DNA of 63,978 nucleotides, counting the filler, from Sphacelaria rigidula (taxonomy: Eukaryota), in assembly GCA_964200075.2 (NCBI GenBank). It is 8 parts of 8 records of this genome, joined end to end, with 100 filler letters (N's around TTAATTAATTAA, not from the genome) between each part and the next. Parts side by side here need not be neighbours in the genome. Positions count along the whole stretch, not along the records: positions 24,032 to 31,941 come from CAXNAA020013007.1; positions 32,042 to 39,951 come from CAXNAA020013008.1; positions 40,052 to 47,960 come from CAXNAA020013009.1; positions 48,061 to 55,969 come from CAXNAA020013010.1; positions 56,070 to 63,978 come from CAXNAA020013011.1; 3 more parts are not named here. The stretch is one strand, 5' to 3'. Positions 25,302 to 62,559 of the stretch are shown in pieces; the first letter of the stretch is position 1, and every line of letters starts with the position of its first letter. A model generated the notes under the pieces. That model saw nothing but the letters and a program-made list of their open reading frames with translations. It did no database searches and was not told where the DNA came from. A program made the position numbers and the translations under genes.

Positions 25302-25511
25302 TGTAATGCGTGAGAGGACCGCGTGCTTAGAGGACCGCGCCGTAGTTCAAAGCATCCCAGGATCGACGTTTTTAAAACCAATCGGACCAGTCCCTGCAAA
25401 TACCACGCCCCTGACCATAGACCTAACACCAACCCTGACCCTAACACTTACCATAGGGATGTTCAAATCCCGATGCGGTCCTCTAAGCATGCGGTCCTCT
25501 CACGCATTACA
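25302..25511 (+). mobile_element. Telomere-repeat-bearing MITE, copy 1
   Basis: TIR TGTAATGCGTGAGAGGACCGCGTGCTTAGAGGACCGC, internal degenerate CCCTAA tract, 5-bp TSD CTCCC. Confidence 0.9.
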
Positions 25512-26803
25512 CTCCCGACCACACACCAAAACGTAAATGGTGCGGTCTCATTTCATACGCGGCCAGCGGCCCCACGCCTCATTTCCGAGTGAACGTCGGC
25601 CGGCGCTAGCTCAGGCTTGTGGTGTGGGTACAACGGGTCCGATCGGTCCTGGGTCAAGGGTCCCGCTAAGACACGATCCCGCGAAACCACACGTGGATGT
25701 AGCTCTCACGGTAAAGAATTGTGTCGCCCATCATAAGAATTGATCACTCTAGTGTAACACTTCATAGTTCAAACTGTTAGTAGCTAACTCCTCCCTGACC
25801 ATCGGCGTGGAAGACCACGTCTTGTGCAGGTACCCACATGCCGAGAGAGAAGCTGTCTCGCGGTACTGCGTTGCTGCCCCTACGGCTATCCACCGTAGGG
25901 TACATGTTGGCCCAGACGTCCACAGGGCGTCGGGCCCTTTTGTGGTTGATCACAGTTATTCCACTGTGGATCATCACCACAGGGAACCCTCGCTTTCCGT
26001 TGCTCCACGGGTTGGAGAAGGACCCCCGGCAGTGGCCCGGTCGGTAAGCCAAGAGCTCACACCGTTACGAATACTCCCAGGAACTTCCAAACAGCGACAG
26101 TAGTTCATGACGGTACGCCTGAGGTATAGGATGTGCCGCTACCACCCTCTGCCCCCCCGTTGCCCCCTGAGCTAGCACCAACAAAGAAGTCGAGGCGGAA
26201 CATGTTGAGCCACGAGTCCACCCTACCTACTGCCGGTTCGTTGTCGCGTTCACGTGCGGGTCCGCCACTGGCGATCCCACACCACGACAGGCTTACGCGG
26301 GTAATAGACGATTCGTCCCCTGTAGTTCCAAGTTGGCCCCCGACACCGTGTCTACCGATAGATTCAATGCGACCATGTCTATTTCCACTACATATGTTGG
26401 TGTTGATCACGTGAGTTCCGCTGGTGAAGCCACCGGAACCACGTCCGACGACGAAAAACCGTCGACCCTCTTTTCCACTACTGTAGAGGATTCGGCAAAC
26501 ACATTGCAGTGCAGGGCTGAAATTTCTGCTGACCCCGCACTTGAGACATCCACTACTAAGCCGGCAGTGCATGCCCCCCCATGCCGGCATCACAGCCGAC
26601 CCCGCCCATACCACGACGGTCACGACAAATAGTCGCACCCCCATGGCGGTCTGCGAGATACGTAGCCCTGACGCCCCAACATTGGAGAACCCCAAGACCA
26701 GTGCCCACATCCCCAGGTCCCACAAGACCACCCCAGAGTATATTCCAGTGCTAAGGTAAGGAGGTATAGCGAACACATATCAATCCGTTGCCGAAAATTG
26801 GCC

Positions 26804-26999
26804 CGTGAGAGGACCGCGTGCTTAGAGGACCGCATCAAAACTCCTATGATCAGGGTTAGGGTTAGGGTTAGTGTTGGGGTTATGGTCAGGGGCGTGGTAC
26901 CTGCAGGGACTGGCCCGATTGATTTTGAAAAGCATCAATCCTGAGGTATGTTGAACTACGGCGCGGTCCTCTAAGCACGCGGTCCTCTCACGCATTACA
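26804..26999 (-). mobile_element. Telomere-repeat-bearing MITE, copy 2 (left tip lost)
   Basis: Same TIRs and internal AGGGTTAGGGTTAGGGTTAG. Confidence 0.9.
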
Positions 27000-28635
27000 G
27001 GCACATACAAGTTGGTGTGAGAACTGCGGGAGCAAACAACTTGGTCCGTCTGTGCTCATGTGTTGCGTTTTGGGGTAGATATAGGCATACACGAACAGGA
27101 AAGGGGTTCTTTTGTGTCTTACCGTTGGGCTGATCGTTCGTCGGTCCACCACCTCAAGACACAACACAAATAGAGCACACACAAACGTCTGAAACGTGTA
27201 CACGTAACGCACATGGGTCACCCACGAACGTGGACGTATATGTGTAGAAACTCCGCAAGTTTTCATGAAAGAGTGAAGGAATGGAGTAAAAGGACTACTG
27301 TACTGCATAGACTGAAAAACATTATATATATATATATATATCAGCACGGTGTCGATTCGCTGCCGCTGTAGAGTGCCGTACACAAACTAACCTCGGCGTT
27401 CTCGCCGAAGTGGTAGGGTGATGGATTTTTCCCATCACGACCTGTCAATATGGACAGCGATGCTGTGCTGTTGTGGCATCACAAAAACAATCCTGCAAAG
27501 TTATGTACAGCAACCAAACTGTACTATATCTCGATCCGCACCCATGGAGGGAGACTCCAACAACACTGAAACGGTCTTGTGCTGCACACATGTTCATCCA
27601 GGCGTGCGCAAACAAACTGAAGGCAAGGGGAATATGACCGGTGATAGAAATGAAACCTCGCATCTTGTAGGGTGCACATCGTGAACGGAAGTTGGGTAGT
27701 GGCGCACGATGATGAACCCCGGTGGTGTGTGCACACAGCGGTGGAGTGTACACACTGATCTCGACGCAGCCCGCTTGGCGTTTCTTTGCAGGTGCCCGGA
27801 ACCAACTGTACACACACACGCGGTTTCGCGCCTGAAACGGGGTAGCACGGGAACGATCGCAGCTTGTTCACAATTCACCAAGCCGGAGAACACTATATAC
27901 AACAGCGAGCGCGGCGGGAAAAGGAAGCCTCATGCACCGGGTGCATTGTCGCGGGAAGTTGTAGGCATGCCATGATCAGTTGAGACCAGGTATCATTTTG
28001 TTATTAATTCACTCATATTTATTTGCCCACTCACACATAACACACATATACTGAAACCACCACTGAATCAGAACTGACACACACAACAACGAACACAACA
28101 ACACTGAATCAAGTGGGGCGGGAAATCATTCATACAAAATCACACGTCATGATCCCACATTTTCGGCCCGCGAGATGGCGCGTGCCCCCAGTAGATTTGC
28201 ACTGCAAGCACTAGATCGGGTATACCTCAAATAGCAGAACTAGTCTCTTATTCGTACTTCCCCTGTATGTCATGATCCAATCTTGATATCCATTTCCCTC
28301 GTATCCACGCAGATCCTGGAGCTTAAGTATAATTGATTAGGCGGTGCACGCTGATCCTGTGATCGTTACTTGTGCCGACGGCAGCCAAGGGCGAACGTGT
28401 GCACAGGAAGGAGCTCCAGAGGGGGGAAGGAAATACGTGCAGCTGTAATGTAATATACCGGTAGGTTTGGAAAAACGAAAAATGCGTAGTACCAACAACT
28501 GCGGCTGACTGTTGTACACGCTCGCGTAAGATACGCACAGAGGCACAGCTACTAATGCAGTCGACACGACACACTAGTAGCTAAAACTGAAACTGAGTGC
28601 TTGATCTAGCGATGTGGCACTCCTGTGTGGACGAG

Positions 28636-28846
28636 TGTAATGCGTGAGAGGACCGCGGGCTTAGAGGACCGCATCGGAATTCGAACACCCCCATGGTTAG
28701 GGTTAGGGTTAGGGTTAGTGTTGGGGTTAGGGTCAGGGGCGTGGTACCTGCAGGGACTTGCCCGATTGGTGTTGAAAAACGTCGATCCTGAGATAGTTTA
28801 AACTACGACGCGGTCCCCTAAGCACGCGGTCCTCTCACACATTACA
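28636..28846 (-). mobile_element. Telomere-repeat-bearing MITE, copy 3
   Basis: Both TIRs present with a (TTAGGG)3 tract. No TSD seen. Confidence 0.9.
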
Positions 28847-28979
28847 CCCGCTGAAATTAACAGCACGGCCTCCTTGATGACACTAGCCGGTCAGCCCCGG
28901 ATAAACTATCCATCTGTCCCTCCTCAACAGTTTTCCGCACAGGTTTTGGATGTTGTGGGAGCTGTGTCAAGTATACTCG

Positions 28980-29190
28980 TGTAATGCGTGAGAGGACCGC
29001 GTGTTTAGAGGACCGCGCCGTAGTTCAAAATACCTCAGGATCGACGTTTTTCAAAACCAATCGGGTCAATCCCTACAGGTACCACGCCCCTGACCCTAAC
29101 CCCAACACTGACTCAAACCCTAACCCTAACCATAGGGGTGTTCAAATTCCGACGCAGTCCTCTAAGCACGCGGTCCTCTCACGCATTACA
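28980..29190 (+). mobile_element. Telomere-repeat-bearing MITE, copy 4
   Basis: Both TIRs present with a CCCTAA tract. Inverted relative to copy 3 and 133 bp away from it. Confidence 0.9.
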
Positions 29191-31024
29191 TAGGATCAAG
29201 CGTACCGCGCTGCAATATGACCTGCCAATCGTGAGTATCCGTTTGCTCCTGTTGAACAGCTGTGAAAATATCCAAATACGTACTGTCTGTGTGCGAACGT
29301 GACGAGGGGGGAAGTTGTTGGGCACTAGTATGCAGAGAGGGACCGACTACTCAAAAACTGTCGTGCCGACTCGAGCTAACCACACAACGCGGAATTGGTT
29401 CCGGCGTTGGATCGAGCGGAATACTGTCTAGTGCATCCTGAGACGGCACATCATACACGAAAGTACGTCATTGTGCATGACGGCTGGTAGTGTTCGCTAA
29501 CGGTTGTCCCCGGGCGATATCTCGTCGGATGCGACGCTGTAGGCAGAACACAACAAGAGCTTGATCGCTCAAAGTTGAAACCCCATTTATTATGATCCCA
29601 GCTGACGCCCCACATATTATGAGCTTAAGGCTAGTCGCCTCGGAGAAGGCAGCCTCAGTACACCTTCGTCCTCATATGTTCTCACCAACAGAGGCTCAAG
29701 CCGTGTGCGCCAGGCTGCAAGCGCAGCTGCGCAGTAACAACCGAGATCCAGATCACAGAAGTCGTTCAAATCCAGTTGTCACAGAAATTGGTTATCTCCT
29801 TATACTTTACAATACGAACCAGAGCCAGTAGTTTCTCCACGACCACAAAACTCTCTGGTAAGGACTCACTTGGAAGTCAGAGCAATGGCGGCAAGGCTGA
29901 TGATATCCGGGGCCCAAGATGAAGTGAGCTCAGATGGGAGCTCGGGGCGCCAGCGTGACTACCTTACGCAGGAACTATATCCGTAAAACTAATTATGATA
30001 CAAAAACCAAAGATCAGACATCCTCCATCCAACGAACGTTCGGTGAATACTATCCGTTGTGCATATGATCATCCAATGTGCAGACATCAACCATACTGTA
30101 TCTCCCATCGACTAATCGGAAGATCAAATTGGATCTCCCAACAAGCTGACAACTCTCGACGGCTAACCAAAACCCAAACGTTCATATACTCCGAGATCTG
30201 TATGTCTAGAGCGCTGCTGTACCTCATCGACGCTAGTCCCTTCGAATACCATAACAATAGCCCACTCTGAAGCGTGAGCATGCAGACGCTCGAAGAGCTT
30301 CGAAGGCTCACGTTTCACCATCATCTCCCACACCACAAAAAAAAAGGTAAGATGAAAATAGAACAAAGAGCAAAGAACTCACTCATCATGACAAATAACG
30401 GAGTTCCAACTTTGGCGCAGGGTCCGTGCGGTTGCGTGATTCGCCAGTCCCTGGTACACACAGAGGAGGCGCTTGGCCTGCCAACCACAACCCACACGTC
30501 TCACCCGGATGGTCAATTCAACCCATCAACATGACATACAAAAAAGAAAACAAACTACACGCCGACGAAAAAATCAGCGCGTTGCCCGGATGGTCTCACG
30601 GTCAACACTCTGTAAACCCACACAAACCAGACTGTTCCTAAGGCAACGGGAACTGTATTACCCACAGTCGAACGAACATCATGGGGCAGCGCAATACTCG
30701 CGATAGGATTTCACGTTTATCGGTTTCAAGGGGCCCACCAAGGCATAACGACCAAGAAGACATCACTTTCATCATTGAGGTAAGTGCATGCGAAAAGTCA
30801 TACCGGTGGAAAGACCAACGAGAGAGCTCGCGGTATAGGATCTAGGAGCGGCAGCAGTGGCCGATTGAAGCTCCAGGATCGTACAGCGATAATCGCCGCG
30901 CAACGCGTACTGAGGAAGCCCGAGGGGATTGGTCATCCGTTTTCGCACACGCCGACAAACAAAGGCCACCGCCGTCATACCCAAAAACACGTGACAATTT
31001 GCTGAGGAAGCCCTTGGGGTATCG

Positions 31025-31275
31025 GAGTCATCCTACGATAGGGGTGGGGGTATTTGGTTGCACGAAAAAAAGGGCTGATACGTGTGTCAGATGGCTTGCA
31101 ACACTCGCGATGCGCTTGTATTTGGTTCAAAACGGTGTCAATCGGTATGAATGAGCGTTATGTATCTGTAACAAGCTCGTTCAAGCAACCGTTCCTGATT
31201 TCAGCGGCGATTTGCCTCGGGATCTCGTGCAACAAGTGGCCCAAAATACCCCCCCCCCCTATCGTAGGATGACTC
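31025..31275 (+). mobile_element. 251-bp MITE with GAG...CTC termini (Sola2-like)
   Basis: TIR GAGTCATCCTACGATAGGGG...TATTT. Flanks ATCG / ATCA suggest a 4-bp TSD. Sister copy at 62227-62478. Confidence 0.85.
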
Positions 31276-31869
31276 ATCAGTCATCCCTTGGCACAAATGT
31301 CGAACATACAGCCTAATCTACTGTGCTCACGCTCTGCCATGAACAACGTTGATGTAGGATACAGTGTGGTACAAATAACATGCGCCATGTTACAATTGCG
31401 GAGGATTTGGTACCAATCAGAGGAATGATGTCTAATAACGTAGGTTATGCGAGTACAGTCACGTGTGCAGCACAAGCAGCTGGAGTGCCCATCGCCCCCT
31501 TCGGTCATTCCATCGTGGTCCATCTTGGGTCTTGGTTCTGGGATGCCAACTGTCTGCCTTGCTCTGGGGGTTAACATAAGTGTATGTGGTGAGTTTGTTC
31601 GTGTGTGGTATTGAGTGGAGGATATTGAGCGTGCGTTATTGTGTGATTGGAGGTGATTAAGGTCTGGAAGAGTGAACAGAGTGAAGTGAGATAATCGAAA
31701 CGTGTTCTGGAGCCATCTATAACTAATACGATTTGCCTGAGCCAAGGTGTTGACTGCGGTTCACCCGCTTGAGGTGTGTGAACGTTTACCCCTCATCAGA
31801 GCGGTCGATAACGCTAGCGTGAAGAGTTACAGCCGATGCAAAGGGGTTTGAGATTGGAGAGAGTTTGAG

Positions 31870-31941
31870 CAAGAAACAACAAGTTGTGAGAATTGAGGTT
31901 TAACTTCGAGATGAGGCTCAAGCCTAAAACAGTGCTTTCCC
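31870..31941 (-). repeat. Dispersed repeat shared with 48072-48150
   Basis: Reverse complement GGGAAAGCACTGTTTTAGGCTTGAGCCTCATCTCG... matches the start of contig 7. Confidence 0.75.
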
Positions 31942-33543
31942 NNNNNNNNNNNNNNNNNNNNNNNNNNNNNNNNNNNNNNNNNNNNTTAATTAATTAANNN
32001 NNNNNNNNNNNNNNNNNNNNNNNNNNNNNNNNNNNNNNNNNCAGGGGACAGGTTAAACAGTGAGACCACGCCTCGGGACACGTGGGGCGACGACGGGGGG
32101 GGGGGGGGGGGGGGGGGGGGTACTCATAATCTTGCATGCCGTAGCCATGTAATCATTGACCTTGCATCCCTATAAAGCCGGGACGGAGCATGCCGGATTT
32201 TCGGGAGGGGGGGAAGGGGGGGGTGTACTCGTGGTCTTGGCATGCCATAGTCACCACACCCTGGACTAAAGAATACACAGTCAAAAGTGTACTGCGTACA
32301 GTATCGACTATTGCGCCTATTACAATAGACAATAGATTCCATACTGTACGCAGTACATTTTTGGTACAATATAATCTATTGTCCAGGGTGTGATAGTCAC
32401 TAAGCGAAAGTGATGTGTTATTATACGTGAACTCAAATACACCGCTTCGTGGGGAAAGTTGTTGACCGTTTGGACGTCCCTGGGATTCTGCTCCGATATT
32501 TTGTAAATTGACAGTCCTGTGAGTTTTCGAAGGCTAGTCTTTGGAGGCGTAGATAGATGCCTAGAGGACATGCAGAAGTGATGCAAAAGATGGACAAGAG
32601 GCGTGCAGCAAGTCCGGTGCACCTTTTTTGCCCCATATGTATGTGTCGGCTGGGCTCCGTAGTGTTGAGAAGATGGCTACTTCTGCCACGCCTTTGCTAG
32701 CCACCACTGTTGCTATTGAAGCATTCAATTACGCAAATCCGAATATTATCACGACGCAGTTGCTTGGCAGCCGGGGTCTGTGAGCGGGGCAAGGTCACTG
32801 CTGCGCTTCCACTCACGCTGCTCGTGTGTGCGTCAACTTGTCCCACTCCGTTGGCTGTGGGGAGTATCATAGGAAGAAACTCTTCCGCAAATCCCGGACC
32901 TCGGATCAAAATGCCACTCAACCACACGCGCACTCGCCGTCTACAGCACGTACACCCCTCACCCACTGCGCCTGTACTTTTACGTATTGCTCCTGCGATA
33001 ATTTTATGTAGTTGTCCTGAGGCGGCCCGGTCGCGGCTCATGCACTTTTAGATACGATTTGCGGCGTATGCGTGGATAATAACGACTTTATCCTTGTATG
33101 CGTTCTCTCAACCAAGAGTAACTACTCCAACCCCCCCTCGAGACCGTGCCTTCTTTTAGAGTCTAACTATTATAGGGTCCCGGCCACAAGGGGTTCACTA
33201 TCACCAGGCATTTCAAATGTCCGGTACTTCCTGTTGAAGGCCCTCTATTCCTGGAGCACTCCATGAAATTGATCCGCACGTCGGGGCGGACGGTGTTTCA
33301 TCCTAATGTCGAGTAATGGTATCATCATGAACAGTGTTGATTTCACCACACGTCAACAGTCTACACAAAGTGGTGTCTTCGCTGGGTAGCACGGTAGTAG
33401 CGAGAACAGCCGAGTAGGCGTGTTTGGCTCAACCGGGCAAGAGTATTCACACCTCCACGCACAGCACAGTCAGACCAAGCAAAAGGTCGAGCTCTCGCAA
33501 CAGCAGTGCCCATCTAGGTCATGCAAGGTATCTAGCATGTCGG

Positions 33544-36500: not shown

Positions 36501-37430
36501 ATGTCCGGTTCTGCGTGCCATCTGCTCTCCGATGATGATAACTTTTTGCCTCAGGTTTTCTTCTCTGTTATTTTTTTCTGCTCATGGTGTTCCGCTCGCA
36601 TTAGCGTTTGCGAGTACTGCTCCCGTATTTGTGTATGATTGTCGAAGCTCGTGATGTCGAGCATTGTACACTGACTGCCCGAGTGGCGGGCAGCAGTGTG
36701 TGTGTGCCCGCTGGTTGCCGCTCGTTTCATTTGCCCGTGCTGTGGTGAGACTCGGCTACCCGCATGCGTCAAGATGTAACGTGTTGCATCTCCGCGGTGT
36801 TTCCTGGCGCCCTCCAACCACTCCCTCTCCGAATCCAGATGATGTCGCAGAGGAAGAATCTCCCAGCATACGCACAGCGAGAAGAGATTGTCGACATCAT
36901 ACGTGATAATCAGGTGAGCCTCCCTAAAACCCTTGAGCGTGATACGGTGCACAGAGACCACTCACTGTGCGTAGAAGGCCGGGATTGTTTTTGTCAGGAC
37001 ACCTGCCGAAAAGTGTCGGAGAGAAGAATGAGTTTGTATCGAACAGGATCTATGAGTATCTCATTCCCCACCCCTACATACTGTAACTAGTGGGCAGGAC
37101 AGTTTTGTTGTTATGTGCTCGTTGTCATGGCTGCTACCGTGGTGAAAATATGACTCGCCGTGTGTTTCTGTACCTTTGAAACATCGCTACGGCAGTGTTG
37201 TGGGTAATGGCTGTGGCCCTCCCAGCGTGCCGCTGCCACGGCTTCGCGTGGTTAGGTGACCTTTTTTGATTTGTCAAGGTCTCGGGTGTTATGAGTGAGC
37301 ATTTGTCAGCCGGTCACAAGTCATGCAGCCAGTCGGAAGCCAAACTGCAGTTCTTGTGCTGCACTATACGAACTATGAGCCACCACCACGCGGTGCTGCT
37401 GATCAGTCTGCCGAGCTCCACCCTGTCGCG

Positions 37431-37472
<42 letters not shown>

Positions 37473-39692: not shown

Positions 39693-40051
39693 GTGCGACG
39701 GCAGTAGGAAAGATTGGGTAACACTGCTGAAGTGCTCGTCTTCAGGCGGTCGCCGCTGTGCTTTGTCTTTTTTTTTATTCGTTTTCGTTTTCGTTCTTGT
39801 TTCGTTTCGGTATGATTGGTACTCTCCATCAGTCCTTTTGCTCGGTGTTTACGTTGCGATTTTTCGTTTTTCGTGGATGAAGTAATGGGGGGGGCGGGGA
39901 GGGGGGGCGTACTCATTTGTTGCTTGCCGTAGTTGTTTGACCATTGACCACNNNNNNNNNNNNNNNNNNNNNNNNNNNNNNNNNNNNNNNNNNNNTTAAT
40001 TAATTAANNNNNNNNNNNNNNNNNNNNNNNNNNNNNNNNNNNNNNNNNNNN

Positions 40052-41235
40052 GAAAACCTTTCAACTACGACCGGCTTCGTACTTGGGGATCGGAGTGTTT
40101 TGTGCATCAGCACAAGCAGCAACGCGGCGCCGCTGCAAAGTTCCACCCATATGCGAAGCGGGGCATCTTGGTGGGGCACGATCGGCACTCTCTCTGCTGG
40201 TATGTATGGCTGATACAGGAATCAAAGCTCGTCAAGTCTTCACACATCACGTTTGAATCAGAGTCCAAGATCCTAGACATCGTGGGGGAGCTGAAGGCGG
40301 TCGAACTCAGTGATGACGAGGACGAGCCATCGGCAGAAGTGGAAGCAGCGCCAATCGACGGCGATGATGGCCCGGGTGGACAGCCACCACAGGACTCGAC
40401 ATCATCGAAGCGCTCTTCTCCGGACAGTGGACTGCGCAGGTCCAGCCGACTGGCGCAACGGCATCGAGGGGACAACGCACAACGACGCTTCAGGAGTTCT
40501 GACGACAGCAGTTCTGATGACGGAAATTTCCTCGCCACCCTTCTACAAGAAGAGGACATAGACGCATTCTGCATGCTCGGGGGCGGAATCGTCACTGGAC
40601 CACAGGAACCGTCGACAGCGAAAGAAACCCTGGCAGAACCTGATGCTGACAGATGGAAAGTGGTCATGGAAGAGGAAACCCAACGGAAGGGCAACGAGCC
40701 TCACAGCCGAGAGGCCGGTGAACCGCTGGGACCGCGGGGGCCACCGGCGGCGCCCGTAATTCATATGACTCCAAGCGCAGACGAGCGCTCCAACGGCCCA
40801 AAGACCAAGGCATCACACACAAGAAACGAGCCGCAGGTCGGACTGGAGGATCAAGCCTCCTCTAACGGCGATGATCGTGAACGAGGCCGAGTCACCGAAC
40901 CACCGGAGACGCTGGGCGAAAACGAAGGAGCGCAGCTCGAAAATATATTCGTGCCAAGCGCGGAGGGTTCTGGCCTTGACCAAGAAGCGAAGGAACAGCC
41001 CGCAGTGAAGAAAACGACAAGGGCAGTGGAGGGACCATCTAAGGGTGCGGGATGCATGCCAAGCAAGGACAACCTCGCACACAGCAAACAAACGTTCAAG
41101 ATACCGTTCTCGACGAAGGATGTCAGAAAGGAAAAGGCGCCGGAAGTCGAGACGAGTCTGGAGGGTCCAGGTCCACCACGTGGCTTCTTTGGCATTCAAT
41201 GGAAAGAATCGTTTGCCTCGTATCTAGAACGTTGA
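40052..41235 (+). pseudogene. pol: Ty1/copia pol fragment (integrase C-terminal SH3-like region to start of RT), internally deleted
   Basis: LRTWGSECFVH...KFHPYAKRGILVGHD...WYVW...SSHITFE, LRRSSR and EPSTAKETLAEPDADRWKVVMEEE. The RT core is absent after about 40680 although the frame stays open. Confidence 0.85.
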
Positions 41236-41285
41236 GTGTGATCGTATCAGCTCTCTGCTGTCACCGCTATACGATCATGGGGGAG

Positions 41286-47451: not shown

Positions 47452-50286
47452 GTACGCTCTCGAGGCATCCCTATTTTACATGTGGGAAAAAAACACTCGA
47501 AATGGTGCCCGATAGATTCAGCGATGAATAAATGCACAGTTTTATCCGTCATTGCTCTCGTAGAACGTAGAACGTTCCTACGCATCAAATTTGCTGCTCT
47601 TGTACATATTACAGCAACTAAGATGAAGTGAAATCGGCGCTGACAAATGCATCCCCGTGTTCCATTGATACCGGCATATCGCCGCGCCCGGGTGGTCTCA
47701 TGGCACAACCGACAGCATGGCGTCGGGGAAAATGCGAGCTCACTTCCCGTCAGATGCGTCTAGCTTGGATTTTTTTCTCAATTTTTTGTGATTTCGTCGT
47801 TGGATTTATGAGGACGTGAGTAGCAAAGGGAGGTTCTTTGGCTGAGTTTGTAAGACGGCAGTCGACGCGGTGCGGGAGTGCTGGTAATAGTCATGATCCA
47901 ATCCGCAATACCAAAATGTCAGGTGTGCACGAGGGGGTGGGGATGGGGGGGTGTACTCATNNNNNNNNNNNNNNNNNNNNNNNNNNNNNNNNNNNNNNNN
48001 NNNNTTAATTAATTAANNNNNNNNNNNNNNNNNNNNNNNNNNNNNNNNNNNNNNNNNNNNCTGAAAGTGTGGGGAAAGCACTGTTTTTGGCTTGAACCTC
48101 ATCTCGGATGTGAACCTCAATTCGCACAATTTGTTGTTCTAACCTCTCACCTTTAATGCTCGCTTTCATCGATGGCAACCATTTTTTGTTTTTGCTTTCA
48201 ACATGCCTCAGTGCAATCTCCAGCCTGCACGCTTGTTCACGTCTCTACGTCCCTTTACTTTGCCCCTTGCCCACCTTCTTTATACCGTGATGCGTTCCAA
48301 ACCCAAGTGCTTACACTCGGAACGTGACGAACTTCGTCACACCCGACATCATCCATGTTAGCTTCCGGCAGCATCTGTGGCTTGTTAGCGGCATCGTTTC
48401 TTTTCATTTTGGGCTCCGGTTCTTTCGGCGTTGAGCCGTCTTCTGTACAGTAAGGTGGTCAAATCATCTTCTTTTTCCCGGTGATTTTTGGGGGCCAAGA
48501 TTGGGGGGATCAGGAGTGTCCTAAGTTCTATATGGCCTTAGTTTTGAACTATTTCCCATAAATAACGAATATTTTACTTGTAGGGCAGGAAGATATGAAT
48601 TTCTCGAACTTGCATTAGCTCTGGGAAGTTACATCGAACTAGCAATAGGGTGATAAACTCATTGATATTGATGTTGAGCCAAGTCAGTTGATGCTTCGGC
48701 GATGAAGTTATTTCCTCAGTTCCTTGAACCTGAGATATTTTCCAATACTACAAGGTTCATTACGGGATAGTTCTCGCTGCCTGCAACATGTCGATTCCTG
48801 CGTTTGCTGTTTCTACACGCATATGCAGCAGTAGGTGGTAATTTGGTTGTCTAGATCGCGCGCCGGTAATTTGTCAGCTTGCAGTGTGTTCCTTGTAGTT
48901 CGATCGGTTTTTGCGGGCTCGTTCTTTTCGTGTACCGTACCGTCTTTGTGTAAAGCCATCCTTTGTCAACTCTTGGTTTTATGGTCATGAGTGGTAGGCT
49001 CCTTGCACCCCATGACCACGGGTCACATACGCTTCTTGATCTCCCACCATAATTAATTTAACATTTTTTGTCAGTTTTGTAGGGATGTGGGGACGGTATC
49101 CCCCCCGATACGGTGCCCAAACTTGTCATTTTCATCCGTAATCTCTTGCACGTTGGACGAGACGCCCGCGGACGAAACTGTCATGAAGGCGCATATTAGC
49201 CTGTTGTCATGCCGCTTCAGACCCGTTATCGAGTCTGGCTATTTGCCTTCTGGGGTTTCGGTAGCCAAGACTGCAGGCCGTCAGAGTTGGTCGGGTGCGA
49301 ATGTGAACCTGTAAATTACAGAGATGATACTGGCTTTGCTCGCTGAACACGAACAAAGCTTACACCATCGATCACTATCTACTGCTCCACTACTGCTTCC
49401 CAGCAGAAAGAAGTCTAAGCATCGGTGAGGCATATTTGGTTGGATTGATTGATTGGATAATGGAGTTAGAAACAAGACAATCAAAAAGAAGTTAGAACCA
49501 CCGCGTGAAACACTTGTCTGACCTTTGGACGCTGAGCCTATGTACCTCATCCGCAAGCTGTAGCAGCCTGACGGTTGTGCACTTGCCTCGTGAGGCTGTG
49601 CCTTGGATTGCAAGCTGTGTCCTTGCAATAATAGCCCTTCAGCTCTTCATTACATTGGCGTTTGACTAAGGAGCTTCTTCTTTTGCTATTGCGTTTCCTT
49701 CTTGATACCGATTTGTATCCCTGCCCGTCCAGCTGCGTGACCCCAGCTTTGTGATCACTTTTGCCCCCTTGCGTTTTTCTTCGGTACAGTAAATAGTCGA
49801 CCCTATCGCTTCTCGATAGTCAGTAGATTCTGGAAAGCTTCTGCCCTGTGTGTCCCTTGATAAAGAGTATTCGTGCCCTGCTACTTGCGACTTGCTGCAG
49901 CGCTTGACTACACATCTTGTGCTACGTGGGGTCAATGCGCACTGCTTGCTATTCTCGCCTTGCTGTCGGTTGTGACATAAACACCTGCACCGCGCCGCAC
50001 GCTGTAAGTTCCAACTGCACGACGTAAATCCCTTGGTGATTCAGCCGGCACGATCACAAGCCAAGCCATCGTTGGCTCGCGTATTTGGTCTTCTACTACA
50101 GGTTTGTACAGAACACCAGTGCACAAGGCGCACTGTTGTTCATAGTCTGCCGCTGTCCCTGACCTGATCTCCTGCCAAGTCAGCACTCTGCTGCTCTTAT
50201 TTTTCAGTATTGATTGTACGCGACCGTTGTATCTTCCCTTCAGGGAATTACTGAACAAGTACAACCCGTGCTCCAACAAAGTGACC

Positions 50287-54308: not shown

Positions 54309-55529
54309 GTACACTGTGTGTGTTGTCGTCTCATCTATTTTGAACGCTGGTCCAGACATTTTGGTAAATGTGGGCGCACCAGCCGGGGTCACACACACAG
54401 AAGGTCAGTCCGTGTTCAGGTTTTGAAACTAAAAAACACTGCATACTGCCGTGTTGTCTGGTGTTGGGTGTAGTACTCTGCAGTTCATACACCACTGCAG
54501 AGTTATCTGGTGCTGAGTGTACCACACTGTAGTCAAGATGATGGGGTCATCTTTTGGGCAGTTTTTAAGCAGTTTTCCGGAAGGTTCTTCCGATTTTTTA
54601 GAGGTTCTGCTCGTTATTTTAAAAGTATTCCGAAAAAACGAGAGTGTTTTCTGTCACAAAAATCTACAGCCGAATCTGGAATAGCCTGAGACAACAACCA
54701 ATTTAAAAATTGGAATTGTTTATATTATATACAATATATTTACATGTTATATATTTATATATATAAATATAAATATTCATCAAGGGGCAGTATATACTAT
54801 ACTATTTATTCATATATGAAAATATATGTGCTAAAGTATATACGATCCTTATATTATATATTATACATAACTATGTAAAGGAGCAGAAGCAAACATACAC
54901 CCCGCAAAGCCCACCAAACTTTTCGGATTTTGTCAATGTTGACTGATCAATTTCTTGCAACAAGGTTAGCAGGGGAAAAAAAATCAGGGCAATTTTGATT
55001 GTCGAAAAAACGCTCTTCGGCATCTGAGGTCATCGGGACAGAACGGGCAAGGAGCAGAAGCAGATATACGAACCCCACACAGCCCATCAGACTATTCTGT
55101 TTTTGTCGCAGCCTTCAGTGATAAATTTCTTGTAACAAAATGAACAAAAGAAATCAAAACAGTGTTTAGTGATCAAGTCCTTGTGACAAACTTGACAAAA
55201 CAAAAATGAAAAAATCATGACAATTTTCGAAAAAATGCCCTCCGGGAGGGGGGAAGGGGGGGGGGGGGGGGGGCTACGTGTCCCGAAATTGTTTTTCGAC
55301 TGCCCCTCGTGGGAGCCCACGTTTTTTCAATCTGCGACGGTTATATACGAGCAATTCGAGAGCCAAAGTTTTGAAAATGAGAGCGCCACGTGTACAACCT
55401 CGCCCGCGCATAGACGAGCACGTGTGATGCTCAGCGGGCAGGTGAACAGCACGCACATAGTTGACATGAACACAGCTACACACATGGAGAACATCCTCAA
55501 CAGGCAGGGTAAACTTGTAACCTTAAGTT

Positions 55530-55590
55530 TGCTTGGTTTTGAAAAACGTCGATCCTGAGGTGTTTCGAACTACGATGCGGACCTCTAAGG
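55530..55590 (-). mobile_element. Fragment of telomere-repeat MITE family
   Basis: GGTTTTGAAAAACGTCGATCCTGAGGTGTTTCGAACTACGATGCGGACCTCTAAG matches the family body and inner TIR. Confidence 0.7.
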
Positions 55591-56791
55591 CCGTGTTTCA
55601 ACGAAACAAGGGAAATGATAATCATTTCGTGATAGTGATAGTGAAGTGACGGTTCACAACTTCATTATCACGAAAAACCACGCGCCGTTCTAATCGAGTT
55701 TGCTACGGTGGGAAACAAGTGATACAGAAACGGTAAAACAGCATGCGGACAGACCAGCGACTTCAAGGAGGGCAAGAATCACGCGGAAGGGGGTATGGGT
55801 ATTCTCGCAGGTCGAAACGCGGATCGCCTTCCGCACGAGAAGAAGAAGCAAAAGCAGCAGTAGTATCAGCAGCATCTTTACTGCCAGTAGATGTACGTGG
55901 CTGAAGGGGCGTACTCATTTGTTGCTTGCCTTAGTCGTTTGACCATTGACCACGCATCCCTTTCCAGACNNNNNNNNNNNNNNNNNNNNNNNNNNNNNNN
56001 NNNNNNNNNNNNNTTAATTAATTAANNNNNNNNNNNNNNNNNNNNNNNNNNNNNNNNNNNNNNNNNNNNAAGGGGCTCCTAACAATTCTAACCTCAGAAT
56101 TTTTTTCTGTACCCCTACCGTAGCATCACTCGGCTTCGATGGAGTTTGAATACATCCACTCGGTTTCAGCGTGGTGTCGGTATCTAGTACTGGATCCCAG
56201 TACTTTGATGTCGTTGCGAAGCGCTTCGTTTAAATTGGTTGTTCTCCTTTCGATATCTTGTTGTGTGGAAATAACGTGCAACAGAGTACTGTACGGTATT
56301 CATTTCAACATCGAGTCCGACAGCTTTTCTATTTCAGCGCGTGCTGTTCAAAGTTCACGTATGTTCACGACATGTTGAAAACGTTCCTCCGGAGGAGGGG
56401 ATTCGAGAGATATCCGAAATTCAGATCGAGTTCATAAGTACCCTCGATCATACGAACAAGCAAACAACAATCCTCTGAAATCTGAGTCCACGACCTACTT
56501 CTTTGTCGGTCCGCTCGTTTATATCTGTGGGTCAAACGAGAAGCATGACACACTTCATACTTCCACCAAGCACCCTTCCTACGTACCGGAGCGTGAAGCC
56601 TTTTCACCACCGAGGGCGAGGGGGGGGGGTCATCTGGACCCTTCATTTACTCTTAGAAGGAATACCGACTTCAAGGAAAACAACGGGTGGTCGACCCTGG
56701 CGACCATAGTAGGGTAAAATTCATAGCAGGCTCACGTGCTGTACGGCAACACTCGAATAAAGAACAACTGTTCTGCAATTTTTTCTCGCAG

Positions 56792-59700
56792 CAAATATAC
56801 TTCTCCGAGACGATGGCCGAGGACGCAACGGTGGTTCTGTTGGAGTCCGGACCTTTCAAGCTAGAAGCCTCGTGCAGGACCACCGAGCATGACGACGACT
56901 GGTATGCGGTCTACTCGAGCGGGTCGTACGACTACAGCTACACGAGTCACTACGTAAGTGACATAAGTATGACGCGTAGAGCTTTGCAGAAGACAATACG
57001 CGAACCCCGGCGTCAAAAATGGACTCAGGCATTACAGCTGCCCAGATTTTGCCTGGAGTGGTTCAGGGGAATCGGGGTGACGGTGATTTGTGTTTTGAGA
57101 TGCCTAGACTATCAGAGGGTAGGTCAGACGCGCTGAAGGGGAGAGAGCAGCGCGGGGGGAGGATGGAGAAATTGTTTCCTAGTATAAATAACATTACCGC
57201 TGAATGTGTCGCACAAGTTGTCGACTATCCAGTAATAAGGTAAGATCACGCCGACCGAGGGTTAAAGCACACAGCGACGTGAGTAGGCGTTTCACGGCGG
57301 AAGCGAAGTAGGCTTTACAGAGGAAATGACGTGGTCGTCAACATACGTCGCTGCTACAGCCAACGAGCGCACATCTTATTCCATCAGCCCGGGGATGACG
57401 CTGTGATGCGTGAGAGGACCGCGTGAATCGGGGAACGCATTGGAGTTTAAAAACCACCATGGTCAGGGGTAGGGTTAGGGTTAGGGTTAGTGTTGGGGTT
57501 AGAGTGGGGGTGCGGTCTCTGCAGGGACTGGTCCGATTGGGTTCGAAAAACGTCGGTCCCGATGTATTTCGATCTGCGATGCGGTCCCCTGAGCACGCGG
57601 CCCTCTCACGCATCACGACGCCATGACAACCTTTGCACCAAAACACACAATTCACCTTAGATTATTCGCGCCGTTACCTCTACCCTTCTCCCCTGTCTCC
57701 GCCTCGTTGTATTGTCTCGACACTGGGAAATTTCTCATACGCGTGGATGCTCCGTCGATCTCCCGCGCAGCTGGCGTTGGATCTGACGTATACCTCCTCC
57801 GTGGAAGACTACGTGTACGGCCCGCCCTACTGGTGTGAGTGTTGCCACCACGGGTCTACTCTTGTATTTCGCCAGTCTTTTGAGAGCCTATACCTGACGT
57901 GATCTAGTAAAACCCCGTAGCGATTATGGTGCTGGCAATGTGCATCGAGAGGCAAGCAATGTTTTTTTGTTTGCTTAAATTGTAAGTGTCAAGACTTTCA
58001 CGAAGTAACTCCTCGGCACATGATCCGATTTTCATGGTCATGTTGTAATGCGTGAGAGGACCGCGTGCTTAAGAGGACCATGCCGTAGTTCAAAACACCG
58101 AAGGATCGATGTTTTTCAAAACCAGTCGGGCCTGTCCGTGCAGGTACCACGCCCCTGACCATAACCCCAACACTAACCCTAACCCTAACCCTAGCCATGG
58201 GGATGTTCAATCTCCGATGCGGTCCTCTAAGCACGCGGTCCTCTCACGCATTACAATGTTCCCGTTCGTCAAATAAATTTTTGTCAACTGTTGGGTAACA
58301 TTTGTATGTCCTGAGCTTCTCCGCCTCTCTGGCATGTACAGGGACCGGCTTGATTAAAGCGACGAGCTTTCCCCCCCCCACCCCCCCTCTCATCTCCAGG
58401 GAGCAGTCATCCTGATGAGGAAGTGCTAGTGGGGCCTTGGGCGGCGGGTGAGTCTAGGACGACCACTGTTTTCCAAGGTTACTCCGGTACTTATGGCGAC
58501 GACTTCACGCTCCAGAGCTTGTCTGGGTGAGTTCGTTGCGTGCGTTACTTCTTTGATGAATTGATTATCAAGCTATGGCAGTGCAAAGAAGGCCTCTGCC
58601 CTCAGTTGTTTCGCATGTTGGAGCACAAACCGGAACAGACATGTATATATACACACTTCCTCTGTCCCATGAGTAAAGTCCATGATGATCACATGGACCC
58701 GTAACCGTGTCCAATGCCGTAGGCGATACTTGTTTCGAGATCTTCAGGGTGTTTTTAGATTAATGCCTTTTTTTTGTCTGCTTGCGCAGCAAGTAGCGTA
58801 CACAAACGGCTGATGAATGATCAGTCGCCCCAAAAATGGCGATATTTTGCCCCTTCTCCAAAACACAAGAGAAGTATCCTGGGAACCCGAAAAACGGCGA
58901 AAATCGCGAAAAATCAAATCGACTCTTTTTCTCCGATTCATGACTGGCATACGATAGCTTCCTCTCATCCGAAACCACTGCAAGCTTAACTTACTTTAAA
59001 ACGAGCCAAATTCGTCGAAATTCGGCCGAAAATGTACAGATTGGACGGAAGTTGGTCGAAATTTGGTCTTGTTTGACCCAACGGTTGTAAGGTTGTAGGT
59101 CGAATATTTTGTTATTGTTATTTTAGGGGCCAGCTACACAACTATATAGTTTCAACGAACCTAATCGTAATATTGTGAGCATCTCCATCTATCCTCTATA
59201 ACGGACTTTACTTATGGGGCAGGGGAAGTATATTTACGCGTGACGTCAAAACCCCGAGTTAAGCAGCGACTAGTGTACCGACCGTCTGTGTAAATTGACA
59301 TGTGAAACATCGGTGTCTGATTCGCCGTCTCTTGCATCTTCCGTAGGCCACTGCGGAATCTGATCTGAATGCCGACCTTCCTTCAACACACCACACAGTA
59401 ATATTTCGTGTATCTTGTAATGCGTGAGAGGATCGCGTGCGTCGAGGACGGTATCGTAGTTCGAAACATGAGAGGATTGACGATTTTCGTAACCAATTGG
59501 GCAGGTCCCTGCAGGGACCACGCCCCTCATCATAACCCCAACGCTGATCCTAAGCCTAACCCTTAGCATAAGGGTGTTTAAAACCCAATGCGGTCCTCTA
59601 AGCACGCATGACATTGTCTCCCTCCTGGTTCGCGGGTCTGTGACTACCATCATATCTACTAGAACATCAATAGTTTCCTCGCTACTGTGTGATGTATCAG

Positions 59701-60383
59701 GCCATTTCATGCCACCTCCATACACCTGCTGCAATGCGTGGGAAGACCGCGTGCGTAGTGAACCGCGTCAAAATTTGAGTACTTCATGATCGATGTCTTG
59801 TAATACCGCTCGGGCCAGTCCCTGCAGGGACCGCGCGCCTGACCCCTGACCCTGACCCAAACCCTAACCCTAATCATAGGGACGTTCAAATGCCGATGCG
59901 GTCCCGTAAGCATGCGGTCCTCGCACGGATTACAATACGACGTACCCTCTCCCAATGCGTATTTCGGTGAAAACGGGATGAAGTGGTATGAACTAGAGTC
60001 TTGTTTGCAACAAAAATATTCGAAGAAACGTCGCTGCTTTTAATGACGAGTTGACGTGGAAAGTCGTGGAAGAAATAGCCCCAACCCTTCCCCCGCCCCC
60101 CCACCCTCCTCCATCGCAACATCACTCACCAAGCATTGGTTTTGTGTCTTCGCGTCAAAGCCATTTCTTGCTGTCTGCGAAACTTACGGGCGGGTTCATC
60201 TTTGTCTTCGTGTTTGGCTTGTACGGCAGGAACTACCTAAGCATTGACGGTGGTGACACAGCAGGCATCCACCGGGAGAACAGCGACTGGCTACCCGGGG
60301 GCGTGGAGGCCTTTCCCCAGGGCATTGAATGCATGGTTGCCGGCTTCATCACCTACCACATCCCCGCCATTCACGACGTCTAA
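56792..60383 (+). CDS. Unknown protein, 3' exons
   Basis: Splice-bounded coding-like exons 56792-56953, 57771-57834, 58400-58447 and terminal 60230-60383 (NYLSIDGGDTAG...CMVAGFITYHIPAIHDV*). One linking exon or donor choice is unresolved. Confidence 0.6.
57402..57616 (-). mobile_element. Telomere-repeat-bearing MITE, copy 5 (intronic)
   Basis: TGTGATGCG...CGCATCAC termini, TTAGGG tract, flanking duplication GACGC. Confidence 0.85.
58044..58255 (+). mobile_element. Telomere-repeat-bearing MITE, copy 6 (intronic)
   Basis: Full TIRs, CTAACCCTAACCCTAACCCTAG tract, 4-bp TSD ATGT. Confidence 0.9.
59416..59613 (+). mobile_element. Telomere-repeat-bearing MITE, copy 7 (intronic, diverged)
   Basis: Left TIR largely intact. 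The right TIR has lost one internal unit. Confidence 0.8.
59730..59934 (+). mobile_element. Telomere-repeat-bearing MITE, copy 8 (intronic, diverged)
   Basis: TGCAATGCG...GGATTACA termini and an AACCCTAACCCTAA tract. Confidence 0.8.
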
Positions 60384-61235
60384 TGAAGCGCTTCCCTTCA
60401 TCTGGATAAATGCCGAAGTGTCTATTTGCTGAGATGGACTCCTTGCAAATGCTTAAAAAGATCGTTTGCCGTCACAGGGTCTTATCAGAGGTGCTGGATC
60501 GTGCGGGATATGTGCAGGGTCGTCCTTGGAAGTGTTTCAAATAGCCCTGACAGGGGCTTGCCCTTCCTTTTGAAAAGATGCAGATATTTGGCCCTTCGGC
60601 TGACGTAGACTGTATCGCTTGTTCTGCTATGGTGCTCGACAGCTAGGTATGTATAGTTGTCGCAGCTCATGTGTTTGTCTTTGAATCTCGGCTCTACAGC
60701 AAAATTGCGGTAGTACAACTTGTGGCGGTTTAACGAAAGCTTGAGTCGTGAAACTGTTCACTGTATATAATTGACGTGCTTTTTAGGTAACACCACATAT
60801 ATGTGGGATATTGTGGATAGCAAACGTGCCGTCATTGTGTGTCATGGTGAGATACTGCAGCGAAGTATTTAAGCCACGTAGCTCGTGGTAAGTCTAGTGT
60901 AAAAACTGGCACGACTGGCACGTCAGACGTACGCTGAAAAAGATGACACGATATGACCTGACGTACGTATCATGACGCGGAATTGTTTCTTGTCCTGATG
61001 AAAAAAATCGGCTTGGGCTCGATGGGCAGCCTGGGTTCGACGATCTCGATCCCCCCACTACCCGCAAGAGATGAATAATAGGTTGTGTGAATGAGCAAGG
61101 CGAGGGGGGAAAGCCCGGGATGCCACTGACTGTTGATTGAGATATGGAGCGGTAGCGGACGTAGCCTAGCCCACGACTCGGACTTGGAAAGCCGGATTTG
61201 TGGAATTCACCGCTTTGACGGTCGGGTGTTGACTT

Positions 61236-61451
61236 TGTAATGCGTGAGAGGACCGCGTGCTTAGATTAGAGGACCGCGCCGTAGTTCAAAACACCTCAGG
61301 ATCGACGCTTTTCAAAACCAGTCGGGCCAGTCCCTACAGGTACTACGCCCCTGAACATAACCCCGACACTAACCCTAACCCTAACCCTCACTATAGGAAT
61401 ATGCAAATTTCGATGCGGTCCTTCAAGCACGCGGTCCTCCCACGCAGCACA
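61236..61451 (+). mobile_element. Telomere-repeat-bearing MITE, copy 9
   Basis: TIRs, CCCTAA tract and 5-bp TSD GACTT. Confidence 0.9.
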
Positions 61452-62478: not shown

Positions 62479-62559
62479 AACTGTTCCGAGGCGACGCTCG
62501 TCGTCTAAGGGGTAATTATCCTTTCGAATTGCGGAAAATTCGGAACGTATATTTATCTC

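Follow-up and report, generated by a model that had tools for sequence, protein, structure and literature searches.

A putatively Ginger2/TDD-like family of non-autonomous MITEs with an internal telomere-like tract in the brown alga Sphacelaria rigidula

The window, by which we mean the whole stretch of 63,978 nucleotides of Sphacelaria rigidula DNA that was analysed, contains a family of short inverted-repeat elements (MITEs) that is real and for which a description in the literature is apparently lacking. Taken as a whole, the family is best explained, with a probability of roughly 0.6, as a non-autonomous Ginger2/TDD-like MITE family in which a telomere-like tract is a passive passenger. 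According to this explanation, cut-and-paste DNA transposons of ~210 bp without a transposase of their own would have spread in the algal nuclear genome, the paired AGAGGACCGC motifs at each end being most likely binding sites for an enzyme supplied in trans. Insertion would produce a target-site duplication (TSD) of 5 bp, at times 4 bp, and the TGT...ACA termini together with these TSDs would suggest a DDE enzyme akin to retroviral integrases (Ginger2/TDD-like); the superfamily is the least certain step. The founder element would already have held the tract, with ~7 degenerate CCCTAA units of which about three were ancestrally perfect, and the tract would have multiplied passively with the element, decaying after insertion like the remaining interior. 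It may have arisen by telomerase-type break repair in the progenitor or from captured telomere-adjacent DNA.

The window consists of 8 mutually unrelated pieces of ~7.9 kb, with spacers of the form N44-TTAATTAATTAA-N44 between them. Hence the 36-kb range 25302..61451, given as one span in the initial annotation, is not a single locus, and distances between pieces are meaningless. The elements themselves are all there: a profile of the copies, run with nhmmer over the whole window, recovered each of the ten that had been listed, at the starts given: nine copies, with E from 2e-72 to 6.5e-58, and an internal 59-bp fragment at 55533-55591 (minus strand, profile positions 23-81, E 9e-13). Beyond these it returned just reverse-strand matches of the terminal inverted repeats (TIRs) to themselves inside the same copies. 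Four copies lie in piece 4, the fragment in piece 7 and five copies in piece 8, so that the ten elements are dispersed over three separate pieces with unrelated flanks, as is characteristic of MITEs. The copies are ~190-217 bp long and occupy 1,932 of the 63,362 non-N bases. With up to one mismatch, AGAGGACCGC occurs 31 times in the window (3.16 expected; maximum of 9 in 100 shuffles), and 29 of these occurrences fall within the ten elements; CCCTAACCCTAA, at the same tolerance, is found 25 times where 0.23 would be expected, and 23 of these lie within copies. All 8 exact matches to (CCCTAA)2 in the window are likewise inside MITE copies.

The end of one copy also speaks about abundance. Directly past position 58255, contigs turn unrelated (agreement ~0.33) in three runs, numbering 136 in X1, 140 in X3 and 127 in X6, and about a quarter as many diverge at 58256, as expected if the next base matches by chance. 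Since more than 100 contigs per run part exactly at the ...TTACA end, the family is high-copy. Scans of sequence collections found no member of it.

In piece 4, a complete 210-bp copy at 25302..25511 (plus strand) is flanked by the TSD CTCCC at 25297-25301 and 25512-25516, and its tract (25411-25452) is C-rich on the plus strand. The copy at 26804..26999 (minus strand) is without 8 nt of one terminus, at its window-left end, and its tract (26848-26889) is G-rich on the plus strand. Two complete copies without a TSD, at 28636..28846 (minus strand; tract 28695-28736, with three perfect tandem units) and 28980..29190 (plus strand; tract 29090-29131), are inverted relative to each other and 133 nt apart.

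Piece 8 holds a four-exon gene on the plus strand at 56813..60383 (coding segments 56813-56953, 57771-57834, 58400-58526 and 60230-60383). Its exons are evidenced by loose ends in X5 at 57771, 57835 and 58527 that bear the letters of the neighbouring exon, and GT-AG borders can be read at its introns. The three introns contain four copies. Intron 1 has a diverged copy at 57402..57616 (minus strand; tract 57461-57507, with one additional unit), which misses its final A, is flanked by the TSD GACGC and is ~80% identical to the consensus outside the tract. Intron 2 has a complete copy at 58044..58255 (plus strand; tract 58155-58196) with a 4-bp TSD, ATGT. Both copies of intron 3 are diverged and on the plus strand: 59416..59607 (tract 59526-59567, without a perfect unit) lacks ~19 nt of its right end, and 59730..59934 (tract 59839-59875, one unit fewer and with CCCTGA-type units) is complete without a TSD. 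Copy 59416 is bridged by X1 and X3 contigs, and its right junction in X6 too. The fifth copy of the piece, complete at 61236..61451 (plus strand; tract 61351-61392), has the TSD GACTT, carries 5 inserted nt in its left TIR and lies ~850 nt 3' of the stop codon. The five copies are oriented 4:1 with respect to the gene, which is not significant at this number.

Alignment and inverted-repeat comparison bear out the description of a ~37-bp TIR that begins with TGT and holds AGAGGACCGC twice. The conserved 37 bp start with TGTAATG, the two motifs are 16 bp apart, and an imperfect extension reaches ~55 bp. In copy 25302 the arms are 97% complementary over 37 nt; in other copies they measure 46-58 nt at 76-89%. 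TIR columns agree with the consensus at 599 of 639 positions (93.7%; p = 4e-6 against the interior). The left terminus is TGTAA in 7 of 9 copies, the exceptions being TGTGA (57402) and TGCAA (59730), and the right terminus is TTACA in 5 of the 7 copies keeping that end. Folded as RNA, copy 58044 reaches -96.6 kcal/mol (z = -10.2), the entire 210-bp unit forming one hairpin. Among the seven two-ended copies, three have a perfect 5-bp TSD, one a 4-bp TSD and three none; for these last (28636, 28980 and 59730) no TSD of 3-8 bp was found. The four duplications are those given in the initial annotation and adjoin the TGT...AC(A) termini directly, and a control with non-self flanks yielded 0 of 42.

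None of the 200 ORFs of at least 90 aa in the window contains a transposase, integrase or reverse transcriptase (RT) domain, ORFs crossing MITE copies have no Pfam match, and an autonomous partner sharing these TIRs was not found within the window. With the ~210-bp size, the TIRs, the TSDs and the divergence of contigs at the terminus, this zero coding capacity upholds the identification as a MITE family. Separately, a Copia-type ORF at 40054-41232 has an SH3_retrovirus match. Its best named relative is a protein that carries the label Sphacelaria rigidula, with 65% identity across 53% of the query, and this one transposon protein makes a brown-algal host probable. A gag-like remnant at 1705-2982 has a weak zf-CCHC match.

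Which transposase moved the family is a more difficult question. Because no autonomous element was seen, the enzyme family is deduced from the ends and the TSD length only, and the TGTAA ends with 5-bp duplications are compatible with an integrase-type, Ginger2/TDD-like transposase without proving it. Ginger1, Ginger2 and TDD elements are described as having TGTNR termini, TIRs of 40-270 bp or (Ginger2/TDD) 50-180 bp, and TSDs of 4 or 5 bp (PMC2836005, PMC10045372); Ginger1 targets CCGG or CCGT and Ginger2 prefers the AT-rich RTATAY (PMC2836005). The Ginger-like character that had been proposed is matched in the termini, which are of the TGTNR type also given for Ginger1 (PMC2836005), and in the TSD lengths, three of 5 bp and one of 4 bp, as in TDD-4/5 and metazoan Ginger2 respectively. 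It does not extend to the target sites, nor does the window contain an integrase or transposase ORF. CTCCC, GACGC, GACTT and ATGT do not follow the Ginger1 rule of a 4-bp CCGG or CCGT, and no AT-rich palindrome is found among them, although with n = 4 this is weak evidence against an RTATAY preference. The TIR, well conserved over 37 bp and imperfect over ~46-58 bp, is at the lower edge of the Ginger2/TDD range or below it.

It is possible, although in our opinion somewhat doubtful, that the same MITE family was moved by a non-integrase transposase of another or an undescribed superfamily making 5-bp staggered cuts, the TGT...ACA ends being coincidental. This would agree with the missing partner element in the window, with TSD sequences unlike the described Ginger target preferences, and with the two spaced direct repeats per TIR, a layout of transposases that bind each end at several sites, and not one specific to integrases. 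Transib, one alternative with 5-bp TSDs, agrees in that length, but its termini are CAC-type heptamers and those of the MITE are TGTAATG. In the curated TE library of Ectocarpus, 51 families are classed as 'DNA/Unknown' and none is a confirmed Ginger (PMC12477816), which would also be in keeping with a different enzyme; among the literature matches listed, none joins Ginger1 or Ginger2 with brown algae. Against such an enzyme, the termini fit TGTNR exactly and the mixture of 5- and 4-bp TSDs is that of Ginger2/TDD (PMC2836005, PMC10045372).

Returning to the Ginger2/TDD-like reading, its other part concerns the tract. The degenerate (CCCTAA)n tract was said to sit at the same internal position in the copies, and indeed it occupies identical aligned columns in 9 of 9, ~20 nt inward of the right TIR. 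The number of perfect units does vary, from 0 to 3 tandem CCCTAA, but mostly through point substitutions, tract length being nearly constant (42 nt in seven copies, 47 nt in one and 37 nt in one). Two to three tandem perfect units are present in 7 of 9 copies; one is left in copy 25302 and none in copy 59416. An interstitial telomeric sequence has at least two tandem units of the host telomere repeat away from chromosome ends, and the seven would be such sequences if the host repeat is TTAGGG as in Ectocarpus, the telomeres of which are (TTAGGG)n (PMC11541908). The variant units CCCCAA-CACTAA are common to 7 of 9 copies, two of the three diverged copies among them. Sub-lineages with 69-79% identity to the remaining copies still have the tract, and this survival indicates that source copies retained it for long, which could also reflect an advantage to the element.

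The idea that the tract is conserved more than its flanks is not borne out: it matches the consensus at 332 of 373 positions (89.0%) and the other interior at 731 of 845 (86.5%; Fisher p = 0.26, a test on 9 copies with little power for weak selection), and the TIRs alone are higher. A tract that decays like other interior sequence is best seen as a hitch-hiking interstitial telomere-like array and is not a demonstrated functional module. It is very unlikely, in our opinion, that an integrase-type, Ginger-like system active in brown algae has, through this MITE, seeded many genic and intronic telomere arrays that are bound by telomere- or Myb-type proteins or act as healing seeds after breakage; the copies would then form a network of interstitial telomere sites built by a transposon.

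We regard as highly improbable the related proposal that the tract is itself selected and working, the MITE being the vehicle that spreads sites for recruiting telomere- or Myb-type proteins, telo-boxes, G-quadruplexes (G4s) or seeds of new telomeres. The constant position in all nine copies, including the three diverged ones, would favour it, as would the four copies within the introns of one spliced gene and the retention in 6 of 9 copies of a loose G4-type motif (four C3+ runs, loops of at most 12 nt); in Ectocarpus, a role as healing seeds has been suggested for subtelomeric satellites with TTAGGG motifs (PMC11541908). The conservation equal to that of other internal sequence argues against it, as do the loss of all perfect units in one copy and of all but one in another, and the 4:1 orientation does not help with so few copies. 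Protein recruitment, telo-box regulation, G-rich structures and healing seeds, all suggested in the initial annotation, find no support in a tract that does not exceed its internal flanks and has a canonical G4 motif in only 2 of 9 copies.

We find it hardly credible that the copies represent solo LTRs, or terminal parts of a small TRIM/LARD-like retroelement. Integration of LTR retrotransposons is marked by TG...CA ends with 5-bp TSDs, the copies show TGT...ACA ends with 5-bp TSDs, and other parts of the window contain Copia- and gag-like remnants, but the ends are inverted over 37-55 bp in a unit that is a single hairpin, no gag, pol or RT lies in ORFs between or beside copies, no direct pair of copies flanks gag/pol, and the profile is silent near the retroelement remnants.

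The importance of such a family is easy to illustrate. DNA transposons of brown algae are poorly classified, and in the best-curated library, that of Ectocarpus, a Ginger entry is merely tentative (PMC12477816). With its many copies, clean TGTAA...TTACA ends and 5-bp duplications, the MITE offers a promising way to the missing autonomous element, which could reveal whether integrase-related DNA transposons occur in the brown-algal lineage. The embedded array illustrates clearly, and in a way that can be dated, how a transposon multiplies interstitial telomeric sequence across a genome, and the copies are a ready set of sites on which to ask whether telomere proteins bind short internal repeats, whether genes nearby are influenced and whether chromosome healing is seeded there. 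Since the evidence so far has the array behaving as neutral cargo, the biological weight of the finding is modest.

Autonomous copies of Ginger1 and Ginger2 encode a Gypsy-integrase-like DDE transposase with an H2C2 zinc finger. The MITE family differs from Ginger2/TDD in having no linked integrase-like transposase, targets other than RTATAY and a TIR of 37 bp instead of 50-180 bp; it resembles Dictyostelium TDD-4 and TDD-5 and metazoan Ginger2 in its TGTNR termini, 5- or 4-bp TSDs, TIRs of tens of bp, cut-and-paste movement and the existence of non-autonomous derivatives (PMC2836005, PMC10045372). Another paper gives the Ginger2 TSD as 6 bp (PMC6839031), thus the TSD length expected from the literature is not uniform. 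Within brown algae, the element DNA5-N1_Ec32 of Ectocarpus, on which its curators comment 'TGTTG-CAACA termini; 5 bp TSD; possible Ginger?', is likewise non-autonomous, with TGT...ACA-type termini, a 5-bp TSD and no known autonomous partner; its description sets it apart, since it is 502 bp long with a 9-bp imperfect TIR, and that comment mentions no telomere-like tract (PMC12477816).

As for the tract, interstitial telomeric sequences can be inserted where double-strand breaks are repaired, sometimes by telomerase (PMC7215372, PMC2246262). They are similar short internal (TTAGGG)n-like arrays, and such an event is a plausible origin of the founder tract. As described, however, they are single-locus insertions, whereas the MITE array would be one array multiplied by transposition, its copies having variant units in common. 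The telomere-bearing elements of Oxytricha are mobile and carry telomere repeats at their ends. In these and in endonuclease-less Penelope-like elements, which are also mobile and bear the host telomere repeat (PMC4522978), the repeats are terminal, as part of a priming or end structure, whereas the MITE array is internal to a TIR-type element. Finally, a ~98-bp subtelomeric satellite of Ectocarpus, the proposed healing seed, holds TTAGGG three times and is alike in that a brown alga has telomere motifs placed within a repeat unit that is not itself telomeric (PMC11541908). That satellite is described as tandem and confined to subtelomeres, with dispersed single motifs, whereas the MITE is dispersed, with copies in introns, and carries one contiguous hexamer array.

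When read and then aligned in a common orientation, the ten listed places prove to be one family, as the initial annotation had proposed. A profile made from the nine copies (starting at 25302, 26804, 28636, 28980, 57402, 58044, 59416, 59730 and 61236) recovered all nine in a search of the window, at E-values from 2e-72 to 6.5e-58, as well as the fragment at 55533-55591 (E 9e-13); the remaining matches in the window were solely reverse-strand matches to the terminal inverted repeats (TIRs) within those copies. With at most one mismatch allowed, AGAGGACCGC occurs 31 times in the window against 3.16 expected, 29 of the 31 being in elements, and CCCTAACCCTAA has 25 occurrences (0.23 expected), of which 23 are in copies. 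The copies account for 3% of all non-N bases and contain all eight exact (CCCTAA)2 matches of the window. Six of them (25302, 26804, 28636, 28980, 58044 and 61236) share 85-91% identity with one another, while 57402, 59416 and 59730 show 69-79% identity to the other copies and among themselves. Judging by these identities, the copies are old insertions that belong to at least two waves or sub-lineages. Outside the copies, telomere-like dimers are seen only at 24032-24045 and 18234-18245, with one mismatch each; the former opens piece 4 at its very first bases (GGTTAGGGTTAGCG).

The window is split into eight pieces of about 7.9 kb each by seven 100-nt spacers of the form N44-TTAATTAATTAA-N44 (7912-8011, 15922-16021, 23932-24031, 31942-32041, 39952-40051, 47961-48060 and 55970-56069), which also surface as "palindromes" in an inverted-repeat search, and thus features or distances that extend across a spacer are artefacts of the joining. 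The elements reported initially under the single span 25302-61451 are real; the span itself is not a locus, because it crosses five pieces. Piece 4 carries copies 25302, 26804, 28636 and 28980, piece 7 the fragment near 55530, and piece 8 copies 57402, 58044, 59416, 59730 and 61236.

Complete copies are 205-217 bp long. The TIR is indeed the outer 37 nt of each end, reading TGTAATGCGTGAGAGGACCGCGTGCTTAGAGGACCGC in copy 25302, where the two ends are 97% complementary, and in other copies the inverted ends run on imperfectly to 46-58 nt. Each TIR holds AGAGGACCGC twice, at a spacing of 16 bp. As RNA, the whole unit of copy 58044 folds into one long hairpin (-96.6 kcal/mol, z = -10.2). The internal telomere-like tract sits at the same position throughout, about 20 nt inside the right TIR, and is hexamer-periodic; it is 42 nt long in seven of the nine copies, longer in 57402 (47 nt) and shorter in 59730 (37 nt), and reads CTGACCCTAACCCCAACACTAACCCTAACCCTAACCCTAACC in copy 28636. 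Its fit to a perfect (CCCTAA)n register ranges from 31/39 up to 41/49 positions. The number of perfect tandem units does vary (three in one copy, two in six, none in two), the differences being mainly point substitutions. The variant units CCCCAA-CACTAA are common to seven of the nine copies, including 57402 and 59416, two of the three diverged ones, so that the degenerate part must have been present by the time of the common ancestor.

Seven copies retain both ends and were scanned for target-site duplications (TSDs) of 3-8 bp. Perfect 5-bp duplications abut the TGT...ACA termini of 25302 (CTCCC) and 61236 (GACTT); copy 57402 has GACGC, provided that its missing last A is allowed, and 58044 has the 4-bp duplication ATGT. 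As a control, each left flank was set against the right flanks of the other copies, and none of the 42 pairs matched. Since the chance of a random 5-mer match is 1/1024, three in seven is far beyond chance. No TSD of 3-8 bp was found for 28636, 28980 and 59730. The first two of these stand head-to-head at 28636-29190 with 133 nt between them, and we considered an inversion between them as the cause of the missing duplications. One of the two flank matches that it predicts is present (the outer flank of one copy is reverse-complementary over 4 bp, CGAG/CTCG, to the inner flank of the other); half of the prediction is not convincing in our opinion.

Contigs from Logan for four coded public sequencing runs, X1, X3, X5 and X6, were compared with piece 8; the runs that match it are labelled with a coded organism and as "algae metagenome". 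Directly behind position 58255, the last A of ...TTACA in copy 58044, 136, 140 and 127 contigs of X1, X3 and X6, respectively, turn mutually unrelated (agreement ~0.33), and one base on, at 58256, a further 41-43 contigs diverge, as expected if the next base agrees by chance. This divergence gives independent support for the exact terminus, and it reveals well above a hundred separate insertion sites. MITE bins exceed unique bins about 100- to 8,000-fold in summed contig depth, a ratio that is not a copy number. The element is high-copy, non-coding and bounded by TIRs, and its insertion leaves a duplication of 5 bp, in some cases of 4. Copy 59416 as a whole and the left junction of 59730 are spanned by contigs of X1 and X3, and a contig of X6 spans the latter junction as well as the right one of 59416; given that the X3 data are from a different study and show SNP differences, these insertions are shared and not private. 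Bridging was counted from 31 nt, so the X3 contigs that enter the 58044 and 61236 junctions by only 21 and 26 nt were not counted. Among the 15 joints listed (206 further ones exist), there was no clean empty site for the five piece-8 copies.

The piece-8 copies lie in and near a four-exon gene on the plus strand, whose coding parts (56813-56953, 57771-57834, 58400-58526 and 60230-60383) are delimited by GT-AG borders and by the loose ends of X5 contigs. X5 is an RNA run by our guess and served solely to place the exon junctions seen at its loose ends: the ends at 57771, 57835 and 58527 carry letters of the neighbouring exons. The gene comprises about 160 codons, and its exon-bearing ORFs have no Pfam match. 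All three introns hold copies: intron 1 has 57402, intron 2 has 58044, and intron 3 has both 59416 and 59730. Copy 61236 follows about 850 nt beyond the stop codon. One may ask if the element makes introns, as introners do. We reject this idea: the introns measure ~817, 565 and 1,703 nt and are only partly filled by the copies, which are therefore insertions into introns.

If the copies were solo LTRs, gag/pol sequence might lie between paired copies. Nothing of this kind was found there in a Pfam scan of all 200 stop-to-stop ORFs of at least 90 aa in the window (12 + 108 + 81, one counted twice), which contain no integrase core, reverse transcriptase or transposase; the only matches are SH3_retrovirus at 40054-41232 and two sub-threshold zinc fingers. 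The former (plus strand, E 3.4e-14) marks a Copia-type polyprotein remnant; among named relatives the best is a protein labelled Sphacelaria rigidula (brown alga), at 65% identity over 53% of the query. This match speaks for a brown-algal host, though it is no proof of one. At 1705-2982 (plus strand) lies another retrotransposon remnant, a gag-like ORF whose zinc knuckle is sub-threshold. A 621-aa ORF compared with a protein atlas gave sub-threshold leads only, and scans for Rfam families and tRNAs gave no matches.

Other short elements occur in the window. Two copies of a MITE-like family of about 250 bp, at 62226-62479 and 31025-31275, have TIRs that read GAGTCATCCTACGATAGGGG... and finish with a homopolymer run of G/C. 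Of all bins in piece 8, those of this family reach the greatest summed contig depth in every DNA-type run, and the family is therefore probably even commoner than the one with the telomere-like tract. A TIR core of similar kind occurs in a 262-bp element at 478-739. Three further elements of ~200-266 bp with inverted repeats of 45-96 nt (17142-17347, 20636-20835 and 18574-18839) are unrelated to the telomere-tract family and are likely other MITE families. Near-perfect palindromes are present at 19872-19966 (46-nt arms at 91%, 3-nt loop) and 32282-32363 (40-nt arms at 80%, 2-nt loop).

It had been suggested that the tract may have a function. It is not better conserved than its flanks: 332/373 positions (89.0%) match the consensus, against 731/845 (86.5%) for the other interior (Fisher p = 0.26), and for the three core units taken by themselves the figure is 177/198 (89.4%, p = 0.35), in a test to which nine copies lend little power. 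The TIRs match at 599/639 positions (93.7%, p = 4e-6 versus the interior). As far as nine copies tell, the tract has decayed as neutral cargo does, and the ends show the signal expected of a transposase-binding sequence. A G-quadruplex-type motif is present on the G-rich strand in two of the nine copies with loops of up to 7 nt and in six with loops of up to 12 nt. The telomere-like tract, striking as it is, shows no sign of function, and we consider it very improbable that brown algae have an active transposon system of the integrase type that has given rise to a network of interstitial telomere sites with a function. The family belongs to the MITEs and carries an unusual passenger. For the tract, the best reading is an interstitial telomere-like array that would have entered a progenitor element once and then multiplied with it. 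Break repair that adds telomeric repeats, documented in vertebrates (PMC7215372 and PMC2246262), would be a plausible source. The available part of PMC11541908 gives (TTAGGG)n as the telomere repeat of Ectocarpus and describes a subtelomeric 98-bp satellite with three TTAGGG motifs, likened by its authors to proposed healing seeds.

No relatives of the family were found in viral, metagenome and prokaryote-genome collections. The 21-nt terminus had no match in viral or in metagenome contigs. The double AGAGGACCGC motif hit 19 loci in metagenome contigs, all of them unrelated 16-nt tandem repeats, where the profile matches the seed only; a 19-mer gave four single chance matches in genome contigs, in bacterial records, with a best profile score of 12 bits, again to the seed only. 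No MITE with an internal telomeric array appeared in the literature searched, including the accessible portions of PMC9071541, PMC9498494, PMC6532368, PMC4522978 and PMC5381526; the portion of PMC4522978 describes Penelope-like elements with telomere repeats at their termini. The term "MITE" is absent from the main text of the Phaeoexplorer preprint, and the curated Ectocarpus TE table has no TGTAA-ended element of about 210 bp. By these searches of sequence collections and literature, the family is apparently undescribed.

The family is real and tidy, and it can help to classify the transposons of brown algae. A DDE enzyme acting in trans would bind the paired AGAGGACCGC motifs and cut at TGT/ACA. 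The Ginger-like character seen initially holds for the TGTNR ends, the TIRs of tens of bp and the 4-5-bp TSDs, the combination given for Ginger1, Ginger2 and TDD in the available text of Bao et al. (PMC2836005); that of Kojima (PMC10045372) likewise has a TSD of "4 or 5 bp for Ginger2". However, the targets of the family are neither CCGG/CCGT nor RTATAY, unlike those of Ginger, its TIR is short for Ginger, and the defining integrase-like transposase is not seen in the window. Because of these three differences we do not assign membership. That the family works like a Ginger2/TDD-type element is, in our opinion, a reading with a probability of roughly 0.45, and we do not file it as a member. 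We found no literature that joins Ginger1/2 with brown algae. A parallel is DNA5-N1_Ec32 of Ectocarpus (PMC12477816), a different, non-autonomous element of 502 bp with TGTTG-CAACA termini and a 5-bp TSD, which its curators flagged as "possible Ginger?" on the same grounds as apply to the MITE family here.
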